A stretch of 64,000 bases of DNA from Eledone cirrhosa (taxonomy: Eukaryota). Under the pieces are notes generated by a model. It was not told the DNA's origin and made no database searches. It saw nothing but the letters and a program-made list of their open reading frames with translations. The stretch lies in the NCBI GenBank assembly GCA_964016885.1, contig OZ024743.1:332320001-332384000 (forward strand), in the 5' to 3' direction. The position numbers and the translations under genes were made by a program. Below, piece by piece: positions 15,310-62,845 of the stretch; within the stretch, counting starts at the first letter, position 1; each line of letters begins with the position of its first letter.

Positions 15310-15640
15310 TATTAATAATATTAATAAATGGAAACTATCTTTATAAAACCATATTTATTTTATTATATATATATCAAGGGTACCAACATTTTTGGTACGC
15401 TCTCATCAGATAAAATATAAAAGTTGTTTTACAGATAGTGACACATTCAAAACTAGAACTTAGCGTTCGAACACAAAACGCTAAGTTCTAGTTTTGAATG
15501 TGTCACTATCTGTAAAACAACTTTTGTATTTTATCTGATGAGAGCGTACCTAAAATTTTGGTACCCTTGATATATATATATATATATAATAAAATAAGTA
15601 TGGTTTTATAAAGATAGTTTCCATTTATTAATATTATTAA
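15310..15640. mobile_element. Fold-back element derived from a PLE terminus, hammerhead motif in each arm
   Basis: ~160-bp inverted arms around 15468-15476. tattttat-CTGATGA-stem II-GATA-(TA)n-ataaaata at 15527-15595. Same family as 22988-23295. Confidence 0.8.
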
Positions 15641-16030
15641 TATTATACTCCAGAAGAAACTTGTAGAGGGCTTCTAATCTGTTATAAACTAAATTTGTTG
15701 AATAACCAACAAATTAAATAACTCATTGCTTATATACACACAGACACACACACACACACACACACACACACACACACACACACACACACACACACACACA
15801 CATATATATATATATATATATATATATATATATATATATATATATATACATATGGTTAATTATGCTATATATATATATATATATATATATATATGCTATA
15901 TATATATATACATGTGGTTAATTATGCTAGTTGGGAGAGGAAATAGTGTATATATTTTATCAAATGATTCTATGGACATAATTTATGATATATATACACA
16001 CACACACACATATATATATATATATATATA

Positions 16031-16720
16031 TACATTAAAATATATGATAAACACAAAACGTGTTTGCATTGTAACAGACAAAGTTAGCTATTAATGAAAT
16101 AAACAAATTAAAGTGAATACAATTTGTCTGTCTCGATATAAGTCAATAAAGACAAGCTTATATTGGCAAAGGCCATGGTTCCTGGACAAATTTAAATTTC
16201 AAAATCCAAACCTGCTCCGTAGATGAATTTGAACCTCGAAACCTAAATACGTTTCGCAACGGTGGAATGTGAATTGAAAAATAAAGAGAATCGAAATGGA
16301 ATTGAAATAAAAAGTGAAATATCCAAATCTCCTGTGCTTATCAACAGGAACCCAGTAAAATTAGTATATTCCACATCAAAAATTTAGCAGGTCTGACTAC
16401 ACGTGTGCAGCCAGGCCAAATTAGCCGTCCCGCATTCCCGGTGCTAGAAATAACAGCCGTTTATGCGGGATTAAAGATCAGCTCTACAGTTAAGGAGCAA
16501 TATACTATATTATATTTTGAGAATAAACTCTCAGTCGTTTACAATAATTCAGCTCCAAGAAAAGGGGCATTTCCGAGCAGTTAAATACATTAAAATATAT
16601 GATAAACACAAAACGTGTTTGCATTGTAACAGACAAAGTTAGCTATTAATGAAATAAACTAATTAAAGTGAATACAATTATTTGGCCTGGCTGCACACGT
16701 GTAGTCAGACCTGCTAAATT
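16031..16720. repeat. Element with direct (16031-16124 / 16586-16679) and inverted (16381-16420 / 16681-16720) repeats
   Basis: Repeats seen directly; microsatellites on both sides; PLE-like architecture is inferred. Confidence 0.7.
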
Positions 16721-16780
16721 GTTGATGTATGTATGTATGTATGTGTGTGTGTGTGTGTGTGTGTGTGTGTGTGTGTGTGT

Positions 16781-16972
16781 GTGGCTGACTGGTTTGAGAA
16801 CTGGATTCGCAATCGTGAGGTTGTCAGATCGATTCCTGGACCGGGCGATATGTTATGTCCTTCAGCAAGACACTTTATTTACGTTGCTCTTTCTACCTGG
16901 AGTTGCGACCGATAGATAGTATTAGACCGCGGAAACATTGTCTCCTCGGTTCGATCTGACGGATGTCGATCG
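16781..16972 (+). mobile_element. tRNA-headed SINE family B
   Basis: gtggctgactgg...cgattcctggacc...agcaagacactttattt; homologs at 26240-26440 (-), 51284-51372 plus 53495-53540, and 53567-53765. Confidence 0.8.
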
Positions 16973-18100
16973 AAAAAAAAAATAGAGAGAGTGAGATAGA
17001 TAGATAGATATATAGATACCATATATGGTTGATGGATGAGCGAAAGGAGTACTCAATACCAAAGTAGAGTTTTGATATTTATTTTATCAAGACTCACTAT
17101 TTAGCTTTAATAACATGTATATAAATATATATATATATGTGTGTGTGTGTGTGTGTAGTAGTAGTAGTATCTGTATGTATGTGTGTGTATGTATGGATGG
17201 ATGTGTGTGTATGTGTATGTGTATGTATGTATGTGTGTGTATGTGTAGTATCTGTATGTACGTGTGTGTATGTGTGTGTATGTATGTGTGTATATGTGTA
17301 TATATGTGTATGTATGTATGTGTGTGTATGTGTGTGTGTATGTGTAGTATATGTATGTGTATATGTATGTATGTATGTGTGTGTATTGTGTGTATGTGTA
17401 TGTATGTATGTATGTATGTATGTATGTATGTATGTATGTATGTATGTGTGTGTGTGTGTGTGTATGTGTATGTGTGTGTGGGTGTGTGTGTGGGTGTATG
17501 TATGTGTGTGTGTGTGTGTGTGTGTGTGTGTGTGTGTATACACCTCACCCCACGTCGTTAATTGGTTCCAGAAGTGAAGTAAAGACTTCAGTTGAAAAAC
17601 GACGAATGTCGAATTAACCCTCCCCATATAAACCTCTAATAAATAAACATTCCTTACATTACTCTAGGCTGTATATTTTACCATTTATTTAAATATGATT
17701 TTATATGTTTTATTGTGTTTTTAGTGTTTTTATGGTTTAATATGTTTTTCAGACCGACGAAAAGTTGGGTGAATTGACATAACACGAGTTTTATTTTTGC
17801 CATGAAGAAAACTGCTGTAACTGTAAAATATATATATATATATGAAAGGTATATATTGAGTTAGGAACTCAAAATAGTCTCTTACAACAAAATAGCTCTA
17901 AGAAAGAGATATTTCCGAGCCGTATATTATAATAGAATATAAAAGAAAAACCAACACAGATATATACATATATGAGTTCAAATCGTAAGAGAACGGATTC
18001 GCTAAGGTGAAAAGAATACTAACTATAGACAATAGGGTTTGCTTGTCTCAATTTAAGAAAAAGTTAAGAAAATAAATTGCAACCGGAATTGTGGTAACTA

Positions 18101-59730: not shown

Positions 59731-60349
59731 TATATATATATATATATATATATATATATATATATATATATATACACGTAAATAAGACCGCTGTTGTTCC
59801 AATCTGTCCACAAAACATTGAGCACCCTAAACCGAAAGCCATCCTGCAGTCAAGACGTCTGCTAAACCAACCCACCGTCCAAATTCGGCAAACCGAACGT
59901 GGGTCTGCCCACCTTCCCAAACTAGGCAAACCGAACACGGAGCGTACCAGTCACCAATATATATATATATATATATATATATATATATCTGTGTGTGTGT
60001 GAGTCCCGGGTTCAGTCGGTGGTATCCACAGCAAGAGAGGTACTCAATACATTGGTAGAGTGTAAACATCAAATTTAATTTAGAAATGGCTTCTATAGGA
60101 CTAGAACTGTTTCATTCAAAAGAAATCATGGAACTAGCTGTTGAAACGGCAAGAGCTCAGCCGTCGGGGTCCTGACTCATTTATATAACCATACTCCACT
60201 AGCCTAAGTATTGAGTACCCTGGTGAGGATATATATATATATATATATATATATATATATATATATATATATATATATATATATATATATATATATATGG
60301 CTAGTCAGGTAGAAGCTATTTCTATATTAAATTATATACATATATATAT

Positions 60350-61060
60350 ACTATAATTAAGTTTAATCTATACATATAAAATATATATCGATTATATTTC
60401 TCAACAAAAAAGCTCCAATAAACATTAAACTCAGAACATCAATTATATAAATTTAAACGATATGTAATTTTTTTTTCATATATCAAGTTGAAACACTGTT
60501 GGTATTATGTAGGTATAGAAGTAATAACTATAGTCACTTAAAGATAGCATCAGGCCAATGTTGCCTAAAGCCAACATGTACAGTCCGTTTCATAAAATCC
60601 CAGAAATAGAAGAGCATATAATCGATTTTAATGATCGGTATCAATCACCAATTATCGACTTTGGTAATAAGCATCATTAACACCAAGAATTTTAATCTTC
60701 AGTGAGTTTTTTAGTCTTTTCTATATATATATCTTATCCTGCGCAAATTGCTAGTTACCTGCCCAAGGTAGATGTATGAATTAACTCCACATAGTGTTAG
60801 AATTACGTTTAATAGAGAGGCAAATATTACAGGATAGGTCATAAGGAGTGCTAAAAATAGCTCCCGACAAGTCCCATTACGGAAACTCTACAAATTAAAA
60901 AAAAAACATTGGAGTAGTTATTTACTATAATTAGGTTTAATCAATACATATAAAATATATATTGATCATGTTTCCTCAACAAAAAAGTTCAGAGCATCAA
61001 TTATACAAATTTAAACGGAATATAAAAAAAAAAATTCATATATCGAGTTGAGAACTACTA
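60350..61060. repeat. Diverged direct repeats (~60350-60500 / 60925-61055)
   Basis: ctataatta.gtttaatc.atacatataaaatatatat.gat...ctcaacaaaaaag...catcaattata.aaatttaaacg occurs twice. Confidence 0.75.
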
Positions 61061-61168
61061 GTATATGGACGTTGGTTTTAGGCGATTTTGGCTTGGTTCT
61101 GTCTTTAAGTGGGTATAATTATTACTTCTTTCTATATTGGTTAAATTTATATATATATATATATATTC

Positions 61169-61296
61169 ATTTTATTAAGGCTAAATAGTGAGTTTTGTTA
61201 CTCTGGAGTTTCGCCTGTTGATCACAGTGTTATCAGACTGTGATAAACAGGTGAAACTCCAAAGTAACAAGACTCACTATTTAGCCTTAATAAAAT
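61169..61296. mobile_element. Fold-back mini-element with hammerhead 3' half (related sequence at 17045-17113)
   Basis: Arms 61169-61228 / 61237-61296; GAAA-ct-ccaa-ag-TA-acaagactc. Confidence 0.8.
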
Positions 61297-61468
61297 TAAT
61301 ATTAAACCTCTACTTCGGTATTGGGTACTCTTTTCTCTCAGCCGTGTCAACCACATACGGATATATATATATATATATATATATATATATATATATATAT
61401 ATATATATATATATATATATATGTATATATATATATATATATATATATATATATATATATATATATAT

Positions 61469-62845
61469 ATTATGAAGAGAGAAGAAACATTTAGATATAA
61501 TTAGTAATAAAATGTATCATACCTAAACTGCTCCTAAATTCCTCGACTACGTAGTTTCGTGGCATAAACAAAAACAATATATCATAAAGACATAGAGTCC
61601 TTGCGAGGTCTGCCGACTTATCAAGAGGATACCTCATTTTACTAGTCTCAAGAACGCGTCTACACGACGTGAGAAAGAATCCCAAAAAGGCGGAGGGGGA
61701 GATAGTCACGCGATATAACGGTCGAGAAACAGAGCTAAGCCTCCTATAACCTCGAAGAAAATACCACGGAGGCGGAGGGGGTATTTATATCGAGGCCGCA
61801 GAAGAGGCTTAGCTCTGTTTCTCGACCGTTATATCGCGTGACTATCTCCCCCTCCGCCTTTTGGGATTCTTTCTCACGTCGTGTAGACGCGTTCTTGAGA
61901 CTAGTAAAATGAGGTATCCTCTTGATAAGTCGGCAGACCTCGCAAGGACTCTATGTCTTTATGATATATTGTTTTTGTTTATGCCACGAAACTACGTAGT
62001 CGAGGAATTTAGGAGCAGTTTAGGTATGATACATTTTATTACTAATTATATCTAAATGTTTCTTCTCTCTTCATAATGTATTTTTAACTCTGATACTGGT
62101 TCAGTCTAGTTCAACTGAATTGGTCTGTCCCAGTCATTCATTGAGCAACATCGGTGAAGTTGGCACCCTTAACTCACAGTTGGGTGCGGATGCATTCATG
62201 TATATATGTGTGTGTCCGCATGTATCTGTGTGTTTCTAAATATATTGTTAATAACTCCCTCTGGTCGAGCAATCTTTGAAGTGTGGGGACAGCTGGAAAG
62301 CTTCCATTACTCATACTTCTCGCCTTCTTCACCACCTCTTCTGCGGCCTCGATATAAATACCCCCTCCGCCTCCGTGGTATTTTCTTCGAGGTTATAGGA
62401 GGCTTAGCTCTGTTTCTCGACCGTTATATCGCGCGACTATCTCCCCCTCCGCCTTTTGGGATTCTTTCTCACGTCGTGTAGACGCGTTCTTGAGACTAGT
62501 AAAATGAGGTATCCTCTTGATAAGTCGGCAGACCTCGCAAGGACTCTATGTCTTTATGATATATTGTTTTTGTTTATGCCACGAAACTACGTAGTCGAGG
62601 AATTTAGGAGCAGTTTAGGTATGATACATTTTATTACTAATTATATCTAAATGTTTCTTCTCTCTTCATAATGTATTTTTAACTCTGATACTGGTTCAGT
62701 CTAGTTCAACTGAATTAGTCTGTCCCAGTCATTCATTGAGCAACATCGGTGAAGTTGGCACCCTTAACTCACAGTTGGGTGCGGATGCATTCATGTATAT
62801 ATGTGTGTGTCCACATGTATCTGTGTGTTTCTAAATATATTGTTA
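61469..62845. mobile_element. Young non-coding element with inverted plus tandem terminal repeats (PLE-like architecture)
   Basis: Inverted arms 61469-61742 / 61804-62078; direct repeat 61804-62250 / 62399-62845 (period 595); 61742-61805 is the inverse of 62336-62400; (TA)n on both sides. Confidence 0.85.

Follow-up and report, generated by a model that had tools for sequence, protein, structure and literature searches.

Palindromes beside (TA)n tracts in an octopus genome as probable minimal insertions of Penelope-like elements

The palindromes found beside (TA)n tracts in a 64-kb stretch of octopus DNA (the window) are very likely extremely 5′-truncated insertions, or stumps, of endonuclease-bearing Penelope-like elements (PLEs). 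In each, the 3′ end of one element is present twice, once inverted and without the tail and once in sense orientation with it. The whole account that we propose, in which PLE stumps are built anew at each insertion by two-ended priming, with a stopping of the cDNAs that is favoured at hammerhead motifs, has in our estimate a probability of about 0.7. This supports the original prediction of minimal, protein-free PLE insertion products that home to (TA)n, and it matches the published PLE architecture.

We examined the 13 positions at which palindromes had been predicted, and all 13 are inverted repeats at the coordinates given for them, with aligned arms of about 26-300 bp, an identity of 89-100% and loops of about 6-91 nt. 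After masking of microsatellites, a seed-based search for hairpins in the 64-kb window found 14, compared to 0-1 per control in 20 Markov controls. Twelve of the 14 are listed sites, the listed site 1205 was missed since it lies under the seed threshold, and the two unlisted hairpins (31972 and 53724) are of a different type, centred on (TA)n. Protein-coding sequence is absent from 12 of the 13 units. Sub-threshold Rfam miRNA matches were also seen on such stumps. The palindromes and related segments, apart from those that belong to long coding copies, are as follows:

1199..1380, plus strand: oldest and least typical palindrome (arms 35 bp, 89%; loop 26 nt); an 86-nt one-sided extension reaches (TA)n, the left end lies away from (TA)n, and the hammerhead is doubtful.
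15309..15730, plus strand: family D stump (arms ~160 bp, 97.5%; tail 87 nt) with a decayed hammerhead in each arm, GAAA missing twice; junction ~105 nt upstream of the cut site.
17844..18229, minus strand: solo segment with a hammerhead (core 18170), flanked by (TA)n runs; similar solo segments lie at 23349-23865, 45704-46178, 46419-46745, 53849-54407, 55718-56235 and 57089-57336.
18299..18639, plus strand: stump (arms 134 bp, 96%; tail 58 nt); directly downstream of the junction lies the 3′ half of a hammerhead (GAAA at 18449, helix III, UC).
22596..22775, plus strand: family H stump (arms 42 bp, 100%; loop 19 nt; tail 77 nt), in which a hammerhead 3′ half (GAAA at 22656) contains the junction.
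22898..23299, minus strand: family D stump (arms 140-150 bp, 96%; tail 84 nt) with near-complete hammerheads in both arms (cores 23086 and 23205); the junction precedes the cut site by 95-123 nt.
31574..31959, plus strand: stump (arms 129 bp, identical; tail 37 nt) with a complex 91-nt centre holding a short duplication, an extra hairpin and a minimal hammerhead that is degenerate (GAAA at 31789, recognized by eye).
45344..45519, minus strand: family C stump (arms 26 bp, 100%; loop 38 nt; tail 86 nt), the loop containing helix II, GAAA and helix III; junction microhomology 3 nt.
49790..50252, plus strand: family A stump (arms 186 bp, 99.5%; tail 54 nt); the inverted arm has a complete minimal hammerhead (core 49987, minus strand), and the sense arm begins in helix II.
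57453..57642, plus strand: family H stump (tail 87 nt), its centre unlike that of 22596.
57711..57926, plus strand: family F stump (arms 65 bp, 95%; tail 65 nt); the family F solo copy 22263-22444 starts at almost the same base.
61163..61360, plus strand: stump (arms 66 bp, 92%; tail 58 nt); the inverted arm reaches a one-mismatch hammerhead core (by eye) and ends at its first base, and helix II is the start of the sense arm.
61468..62843, plus strand: family E, with an inverted arm (61471-61807), a truncated sense copy (61804-62248) and a complete non-coding unit of 595 bp (62249-62843); tail 168 nt; junction microhomology 4 nt. Identity among the three copies is >99%, and all of them contain a hammerhead of the U3-A8 type (cores 61624, 61922 and 62517).

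The predicted diversity holds in that there are 11 families, with two pairings among the 13 sites (15310 with 22988, and 22596 with 57452). Most of the sites are mini-elements, as had been proposed, with two exceptions: 42270 forms the 5′ terminus of a PLE of 4.2 kb, and at 61469 an inverted arm is followed by a partial tandem of the 595-bp unit that extends to 62843. The very high density that had been claimed applies within this window and is local even there, as 1.4-15.3 kb contains no listed site. Adjacency to (TA)n, expected for nearly all units, was confirmed: the tail-less arm lies ≤10 nt from a (TA)5+ run at 12 of the 13 listed sites, 1205 being the only exception, in comparison with ~1% of non-microsatellite positions (one side of the run), which gives P ~1e-19.

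We then looked for coding parents. The palindromes at 42270, 45430 and 49791 had been described as termini of GIY-YIG-coding PLEs, and the links could be verified for all three. Using tblastn, alignment and translated motifs, a parent ORF with reverse transcriptase (RT) and GIY-YIG endonuclease was found for families A, B and C (3/11); for the remaining 8/11 families, there is no coding parent within the 64-kb window. The copies concerned are:

18691..20530, minus strand: PLE A, a Neptune-like element, 5′-truncated and internally deleted, parent of 49791; ORF 20177-19143 (minus strand; RT thumb, CxxC linker and GIY-YIG), RT piece 20382-20077, inverted RT piece 20376-20530, hammerhead core 18939.
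20795..22081, minus strand: family C solo copy (3′-UTR and pLTR, tail absent) that connects 45430 with PLE C; decayed hammerhead, core at 20869.
38496..42677, minus strand: PLE B, near full length but broken, 3′-UTR to 38496; this is the 42270 palindrome (inverted pLTR 42677-42501, direct pLTR from 42500; arms 177 bp, 97%); frames 42236-39617 (RT and Asn-rich GIY-YIG); junction within hammerhead helix II, GAAA at 42493.
46745..48066, minus strand: PLE C, with an inverted tail-less arm (48066-47755) whose hammerhead was lost through a 37-bp deletion, a GIY-YIG fragment (47756-47222) and 3′-UTR.
48205..49750, minus strand: second family B copy, with an inverted tail-less arm of ~100 bp and 3′-UTR; degenerate hammerhead near 48290-48250.

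A protein of Octopus vulgaris matches PLE A (63%), and 49791 is ~92% identical to the PLE A 3′ end. PLE A carries a CX4CxxC linker, the cysteines of which match in relatives, and a CX2-5CxxC linker between RT and endonuclease defines the Neptune clade (PMC8557442); judged by its translated sequence, PLE A has the linker of this clade. None of the window's four PLE frames had a Pfam match, and relatives of PLE A gave weak, sub-threshold matches to RT and GIY-YIG.

Raw reads from another study, including RAD reads, were compared with the PLE A stretch. In run X1, 158 contigs depart from the reference at 18747 into TA-rich sequence, and the summed contig depth is flat along the pLTR, 2.5-fold lower at the endonuclease region and 22-fold lower at the RT end, a fall that has the profile of 5′ truncation. 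In RAD run X21, a change of strand was found in five of the 15 listed joints (out of 338) for family A, although most of these strand-switch joints have one read start and may derive from a single molecule; the 444-bp tandem joint of family A is covered by 120 RAD reads with 10 starts. These reads bear on the idea that the palindromes are fold-back chimeras produced by amplification, missed adapters or assembly, which would fit the identical arms of 22596, 31574 and 45430 and the fact that none of the 13 palindrome junctions was seen in the reads compared with the PLE A stretch, that of 49791 being absent from the 15 listed joints of 338. However, family A strand switches occur in these raw data of another study, family-specific boundaries and one-sided tails are respected, and transitions make up 22 of the 35 arm mismatches (12 sites; P = 0.0003 against one third; 61469 was left out, its junction having mis-aligned), so that we consider chimeras improbable to the point of being nearly negligible.

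A common plan was found at 12 of the 13 sites: a tail-less inverted arm follows a (TA)n run and meets, at the junction, a sense arm whose tail of 37-168 nt leads into a second (TA)n run. Since both flanks are (TA)n, target-site duplications are illegible inside the repeat. In all 12 TA-abutting palindromes, one arm is tail-less and the other extended, with no symmetric case (0.5^12 = 0.0002), and at 42270, the one-sided extension continues into the ORF. The inverted pairs are head-to-head at all 13 sites and likewise on the long copies PLE B, PLE C and 48205-49750. Each family has a constant position for its tail-less end, and solo or long copies use it too:

Family A: 49790, 58819.
Family B: 26112, 26473, 42677, 49750.
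Family C: 20795, 25406, 45519, 48066.

This constancy argues against host repair at fragile (TA)n cruciforms, by which flanking DNA would have been duplicated and inverted after ordinary insertions. All sites lie at (TA)n, and the unlisted hairpins 31972 and 53724 are even centred on it, as such repair would predict, but the centre of symmetry lies inside the element rather than in the repeat at 13/13 sites; we regard host repair as extremely unlikely.

While the ends are constant within a family, the centres vary between copies, as do the inverted arm lengths (26 vs ~310 bp in family C, and 177 vs ~100 bp in family B). As the centres differ within families and solo copies exist (families A, B, C, F and H), the palindrome appears to be made at insertion rather than to constitute a replicating class. 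The alternative, in which the palindrome itself is a non-autonomous, retrozyme- or MITE-like element copied whole, is compatible with the non-coding nature of 12/13 units, with an inner end-point common to the family H copies and the nearly shared start of the family F copies, and with the existence of non-coding hammerhead units (62249-62843, and the 444-bp tandem joint of family A). However, the centres of 22596 and 57452 differ, the ends are asymmetric, and the same ends occur on solo and long coding copies. This part of the original prediction, a retrozyme-like class, was not supported for the palindromes as units, and copying of whole units is largely refuted in the window; we consider it very unlikely. 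A MITE or Foldback DNA transposon was rejected, as one arm is always extended and the interiors vary between copies. A non-LTR retrozyme was rejected as well for 12/13 sites, where head-to-tail hammerhead repeats are absent, 61469 alone having them (61922 and 62517, 595 nt apart).

As the route of formation, we slightly favour two-ended priming. The PLE protein would cut both strands of the (TA)n tract, and reverse transcription would be primed from both cut ends. On one side, copying would begin at the terminus of the RNA tail; on the other, it would begin 37-168 nt inward, at a constant TAT motif that could base-pair with the (TA)n end. Growing towards each other, the cDNAs would halt early and be joined with a microhomology of 0-4 nt, and the most frequent stop would likely lie at a folded, uncleaved hammerhead acting as a roadblock. 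Coding PLEs may supply the RNA, or non-coding hammerhead units may do so in trans. Indeed, the tail-less end has a terminal TAT in common with the flank in 8/12 cases (background 6.3%, P ~1e-7). A different route to the same PLE identity is that the transcript or cDNA folds back and self-primes, for example at helix II, after which the endonuclease trims the copied arm at TAT/T and leaves a one-sided tail. Self-priming has been proposed for palindromes at inverted junctions (PMC3846280), and the tail has been ascribed to endonuclease resolution (PMC8557442). In addition, the template at the tail boundary is TATT in 9/10 cases having TAT (two via a decayed base), which is close to the motif ATT at which the anole PLE cuts (PMC11167929), and in family E, the inverted arm and the first sense copy have one allele in common that is absent from the second copy. 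On the other hand, the inverted arm extends further upstream than the adjacent sense arm in 49791, 57452, 61169 and 61469, implying that it is no plain copy, the observed junction microhomology is merely 0-4 nt, the tail-less site doubles as the end of solo copies, and two RT starts were seen in vitro (available part of PMC11167929). We regard self-priming as an unlikely, if still credible, route.

We next looked at the hammerheads, which had been predicted in the termini. The motif is present, whole, decayed or half, in 11 of the 13 palindromes, in some cases as read by eye, and there is none in 57714. A purpose-built descriptor gave 13 matches, compared to a control mean of 1.1 and a maximum of five (40 controls). 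The covariance-model check, as run with Rfam models in targeted searches, recovered none of these predicted motifs, and taken in isolation, the motifs exceed shuffled sequences only slightly in folding (z +0.7 to -2.4). In 8/11 hammerhead-bearing cases, the sense arm begins inside the hammerhead, upstream of the cut site, a post hoc clustering with p from 0.046 to 0.0003 (exact conditional permutation, p = 0.046), which also argues against the copying of whole palindromes. The figure is 3/6 for complete-core cases only (p = 0.11), and a blind half-site test gave 4/13 (P 0.0003-0.002); several half-sites were identified by eye. Among the eight, 31574 alone may retain a full, degenerate core on the tailed strand. 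The family A hammerhead (18900-18944) holds none of the five listed opposite-strand joints, in RAD data whose sampling is tied to cut sites. We found no report in the literature of junctions frequently lying inside the PLE hammerhead.

Hammerhead-directed stopping of the cDNAs falls somewhat short of even odds in our view. More tentatively, the PLE hammerhead may serve mainly as a stop-and-join site for reverse transcription rather than as a cutter, a PLE dimer priming two cDNAs and the ribozyme halting both. The two start sites would be coupled, one on each side of the (TA)n break, and helix II would set the pLTR 5′ boundary and the head-to-head joint across unrelated families. If true, a single model would account for the inverted pLTR and the tail as well as for weak hammerheads being conserved, which otherwise lacks an explanation, and such insertions would give rise to very many hairpin loci in the octopus genome.

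In comparison with known systems, the architecture is of a known kind; what is new are the octopus examples and one mechanistic lead, the hammerhead-located junctions. How PLE inverted ends form and what the hammerhead does are stated open questions (PMC8557442, and PMC11167929 in its available part), and 11 families of minimal insertions record both start and both stop sites of each event. Such stumps could also be mistaken for MITEs or microRNA hairpins in annotation. Among the PLE groups compared (Penelope/Poseidon, Neptune, Nematis, Hydra and Naiad; PMC3846280, PMC8557442), insertions of endonuclease-bearing elements have an inverted 5′-truncated copy, a pLTR and a one-sided tail, and a (TA)n bias has been published alongside the inverted copy and tail (PMC8557442). 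The window resembles them in the head-to-head inverted copy at the 5′ end, the one-sided tail, partial tandems, microhomology junctions, the (TA)n bias, linked to the CxxC linker, and the Asn-rich insert between RT and endonuclease of PLE B. It differs in that most copies are pLTR sequence alone, with 11 families in 64 kb, in that the tails (37-168 nt) are mostly longer than 30-40 nt, and in that junctions often lie within the hammerhead.

For green anole Poseidon, the available part of PMC11167929 describes two adjacent RT starts in vitro that define the tail, cutting and extension of both strands at AT-rich DNA, an uncleaved RNA template and a predicted dimer; that part holds no explanation of the inverted junction. 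Unlike this Penelope/Poseidon-clade element, whose starts are described there as lacking target homology, the octopus stumps have a TAT match. In Schistosoma, hammerhead pairs on opposite strands, 100-700 bp apart, have been ascribed to truncated PLEs (PMC4209133). The predicted motifs share with these minimal type I PLE hammerheads a short or palindromic helix III, a long helix II and, in family E, the U3-A8 variant, whereas in many of the octopus units only one half of the motif remains. Finally, animal non-LTR retrozymes form head-to-tail arrays of 150-450 bp units that are expressed as circles (PMC7229834; bioRxiv 10.64898/2026.07.22.740005). The stumps are likewise non-coding, hammerhead-bearing and PLE-derived, and family E, with its 595-bp unit and its tandem pair of hammerheads, resembles retrozymes, as does the family A 444-bp joint, but the palindromes are head-to-head and their ribozymes mostly broken.

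Inverted repeats are present at all 13 sites listed as palindromes in the original prediction, which we name by their start positions, and their arms are 89-100% identical. With the window masked, a seed scan recovered 14 hairpins (20 Markov controls, 0-1 each); these comprise 12 of the listed sites and two TA-centred repeats, the palindrome at 1205 being under the seed-scan threshold. Transitions account for 22 of the 35 arm mismatches (P = 0.0003; palindrome 61469 was omitted, since its junction is mis-aligned), an excess that speaks for ageing within the genome and against chimeric reads. 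The adjacency to (TA)n held up as well, with an arm lying no more than 10 nt from (TA)n in 12/13 palindromes; the window as a whole has a GC content of 34% and abundant (TA)n and (CA)n, and all counts are those of this 64 kb alone.

At every TA-abutting site one arm ends at (TA)n and the other runs on (12/12; symmetric, 0/12). The extension is a tail of 37-168 nt reaching a second microsatellite, except at 42270, where it enters an ORF. Each family has a fixed position for its tail-less end, and solo or long copies of families A (49791), B (42270) and C (45430) terminate there too; the tail-less end closes with a TAT that the flank shares in 8/12 cases, against a background of 6.3%. Where a parent or a second copy is available, the junction between inverted and sense arms has 0-4 nt of microhomology.

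The two TA-centred hairpins, at 31972-32560 and 53724-53889, have (TA)n at the centre and not at the flanks, with arms of 75 bp and 41 bp, respectively, both identical outside the repeat. The former extends into a unit of 466 bp, which has a terminal repeat of 26 bp (32535-32560), and resembles a tail-to-tail pair; both are left unexplained by a head-to-head model. Beside another TA run, at 16036-16724, an 89-bp direct repeat (16036-16124, 16591-16679) is interleaved with a 45-bp inverted repeat (16377-16421, 16680-16724).

We then examined the relation of the palindromes to Penelope-like elements (PLEs). As predicted, GIY-YIG-coding parents of families A, B and C lie in the window, and for 8 of the 11 families the window holds no coding parent. 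The coding copies, and the parts of palindrome 61469 (family E), are as follows.

PLE A, 18691-20530, minus strand: RT thumb, CX4CxxC linker and GIY-YIG, with an inverted RT piece at the 5' end
PLE B, 38496-42677, minus strand: broken, near full length
PLE C, 46745-48066, minus strand: inverted arm of the 45430 family joined to a GIY-YIG fragment
61469: inverted arm, truncated copy and complete 595-bp unit lacking a long ORF, all >99% identical

PLE A is about 92% identical to 49791, and a second family C copy (20795-22081) connects the PLE C UTR to the 45430-family end. Palindrome 42270 is indeed the terminus of a coding PLE, as proposed, and is not a mini-element: it consists of the inverted and direct pLTRs of PLE B. 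The PLE protein has its best relative in Octopus vulgaris (63% identity), which makes an octopus the likely host; a Pfam search with the four PLE frames of the window gave no match, and a PDB sequence search gave a single marginal RT match. A metagenome scan with a single PLE protein as the query found no match, and one with an alignment found six loci, one with a 5' inversion of 53 bp and two with hammerhead-like motifs, but none that bears on the junction. Among these relatives of PLE A, one marine metagenome locus (L003:1-176) opens with 53 bp of its own sequence in inverted orientation, and another has a minimal hammerhead past the ORF (L005:3237-3267) and terminal direct repeats of 123 bp.

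The centres of the palindromes are variable. Palindromes 22596 and 57452 belong to the same family (H) and have different centres, inverted-arm length differs between copies of family B (177 vs about 100 bp) and of family C (26 vs about 310 bp), and families A, B, C, F (57714) and H include non-palindromic copies. These differences largely rule out, for this window, the palindrome as the replicating unit.

Several other repeats share the window. A family of about 500-600 bp (1625-2723, 24321-24801 and 37975-38494; 93-97% identical, bounded by TACA/TA repeats) forms a partial tandem at 1625-2723, adjoins the PLE B 3' UTR with one copy, and gave no hammerhead at any of the three loci. At 51373-53494, two identical 368-bp direct repeats, which start with TG and have TGG after them, surround 1.4 kb of non-coding DNA, an arrangement that resembles a non-autonomous LTR element of recent age or a duplication of local DNA. 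A dispersed repeat of 180-200 bp, which we take to be SINE-like, has about 20 or more copies (4831-5200, 8338-8885, 12810-14389, 28609-36822, 41640-41830), one of which breaks the reading frame of PLE B and a second of which forms a decayed palindrome (14051-14179). There are also a tandemly repeated stretch at 9197-10803 whose unit measures about 72 bp, an element of about 350 bp between TA runs (59375-59728), whose ends to us recall Tc1/mariner (Tigger-type) miniatures, and what we assume to be LINE-like coding fragments (3300-4177, 5776-6642 and 27168-27938), with a Pfam zf-RVT match at 5776-6642.

Hammerheads were sought with covariance models and with descriptors. Rfam gave no hammerhead among the 150 of 263 whole-window matches listed, none of which reached the gathering score, nor did two targeted searches. 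A type I descriptor gave 13 matches (mean of 40 controls 1.1, maximum 5), including three family E copies with a U3-A8 core, a variant known from PMC4209133, and a tight descriptor matched the two family A motifs only. A one-mismatch descriptor was noisy (21 matches, control mean 6.2), so the match at 1205 was set aside. Counting motifs identified by eye in 15310, 31574, 57452 and 61169, a whole, decayed or half hammerhead occurs in 11/13 palindromes. In self-alignments of 34 inter-TA segments, solo segments bearing a hammerhead showed no additional fold-back at the 5' end. The PLE C inverted arm carries a 37-bp deletion at 48024-48025 relative to the copy 20795-22081, with the core, helix II and GAAA gone. 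Two unrelated-looking segments (22082-22147 and 59190-59317) have a CTGATGA core at the end, 14-16 nt before (TA)n, and GAAA upstream, which may be the half-core arrangement that PMC8557442 mentions for Naiad PLEs.

In 8/11 hammerhead-bearing palindromes (7/9 families), the first base of the sense arm lies in the core or in helix II, 15-41 nt upstream of the cut. The loop of helix II is where the solo family C copy at 25406-25458 begins. Memoryless-truncation nulls gave P = 0.004 to 3e-6 for 8/11 and 0.017 to 2e-5 for 8/13, an exact conditional permutation of junction clustering gave P = 0.046, and a blind half-site count (4/13) gave P = 0.0003-0.002; the complete-core subset, which disfavours core-destroying junctions, gave 3/6 (P = 0.11). 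The clustering test was post hoc, and we place moderate confidence in the clustering of junctions at the hammerhead. Simple hammerhead cleavage was rejected as the source of the 5' end because all eight sense arms start upstream of the cut. No report of such clustering was found in the literature searched, which mostly excluded subscription papers, and the hammerhead-centred junction is a worthwhile, if unproven, lead.

Read evidence covers the PLE A stretch in 4 of 23 listed runs, two of which (X5 and X7) gave short pieces only; no RNA run is among those listed. In run X1, which may be the source sample, summed contig depth, which is no copy number, was flat over 18756-18950, 2.5x lower over 19081-19405 and 22x lower over 20251-20380, a profile that an abundant family of 5'-truncated copies should give; 158 X1 contigs depart from the reference at 18747, entering TA-rich sequence. 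Another 168 contigs depart at 18944, where the hammerhead has its 5' edge, but subfamily divergence would account for this pile just as well, and it was disregarded as evidence. In a RAD run from a separate study (X21), 5 of the 15 joints listed, out of 338, change strand, so inverted joints of family A exist in raw reads. None of the strand-changing joints among those 15 falls within the hammerhead, the 49791 junction is absent from them, and none of the 13 palindrome junctions was seen in these reads of the PLE A stretch. A further joint, head-to-tail from 19144 to 18701 and carried by 120 reads with 10 starts, points to a tandem unit of 444 bp that lacks an ORF, and 20,585 reads depart at 19148, the ORF stop. 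The reads over 18701-19148 likely represent a non-coding, hammerhead-bearing subfamily of family A of 444-460 bp.

In summary, the architecture of the palindromes, their parents, their fixed outer ends and their variable centres are demonstrated. In an anole PLE studied in vitro (PMC11167929), both strands of AT-rich DNA are cut and extended, two adjacent start sites bound the tail, the template is uncleaved RNA, and the PLE is predicted to be a dimer. On our reading, two cDNAs could be primed on either side of a (TA)n break, each from its own start site, would both halt early, often at a folded hammerhead, and would then be joined together. The main rival, self-priming followed by endonuclease trimming (outlined in PMC3846280 and PMC8557442), agrees with the TATT at the tail boundary and fits less well the four cases in which the upstream reach of the inverted arm exceeds that of the sense arm.

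For PLEs, the literature (PMC8557442, PMC3846280 and PMC8969392) describes inverted copies truncated at the 5' end, tails, partial tandems and a bias for (TA)n, and the palindromes of the window match that insertion pattern. In Schistosoma, opposite-strand hammerhead pairs 100-700 bp apart are ascribed to truncated PLEs (PMC4209133). An O. vulgaris repeat annotation counts 31 recently active PLE families, and its main text contains neither 'palindrom' nor 'hammerhead' (PMC13282606). The tandem arrangement expected of retrozymes (bioRxiv 10.64898/2026.07.22.740005; PMC7229834) occurs at 61469 alone, and the suggested retrozyme-like class is not upheld. The palindromes are real, and are a dense, multi-family octopus case of the known PLE insertion pattern and not a new class.
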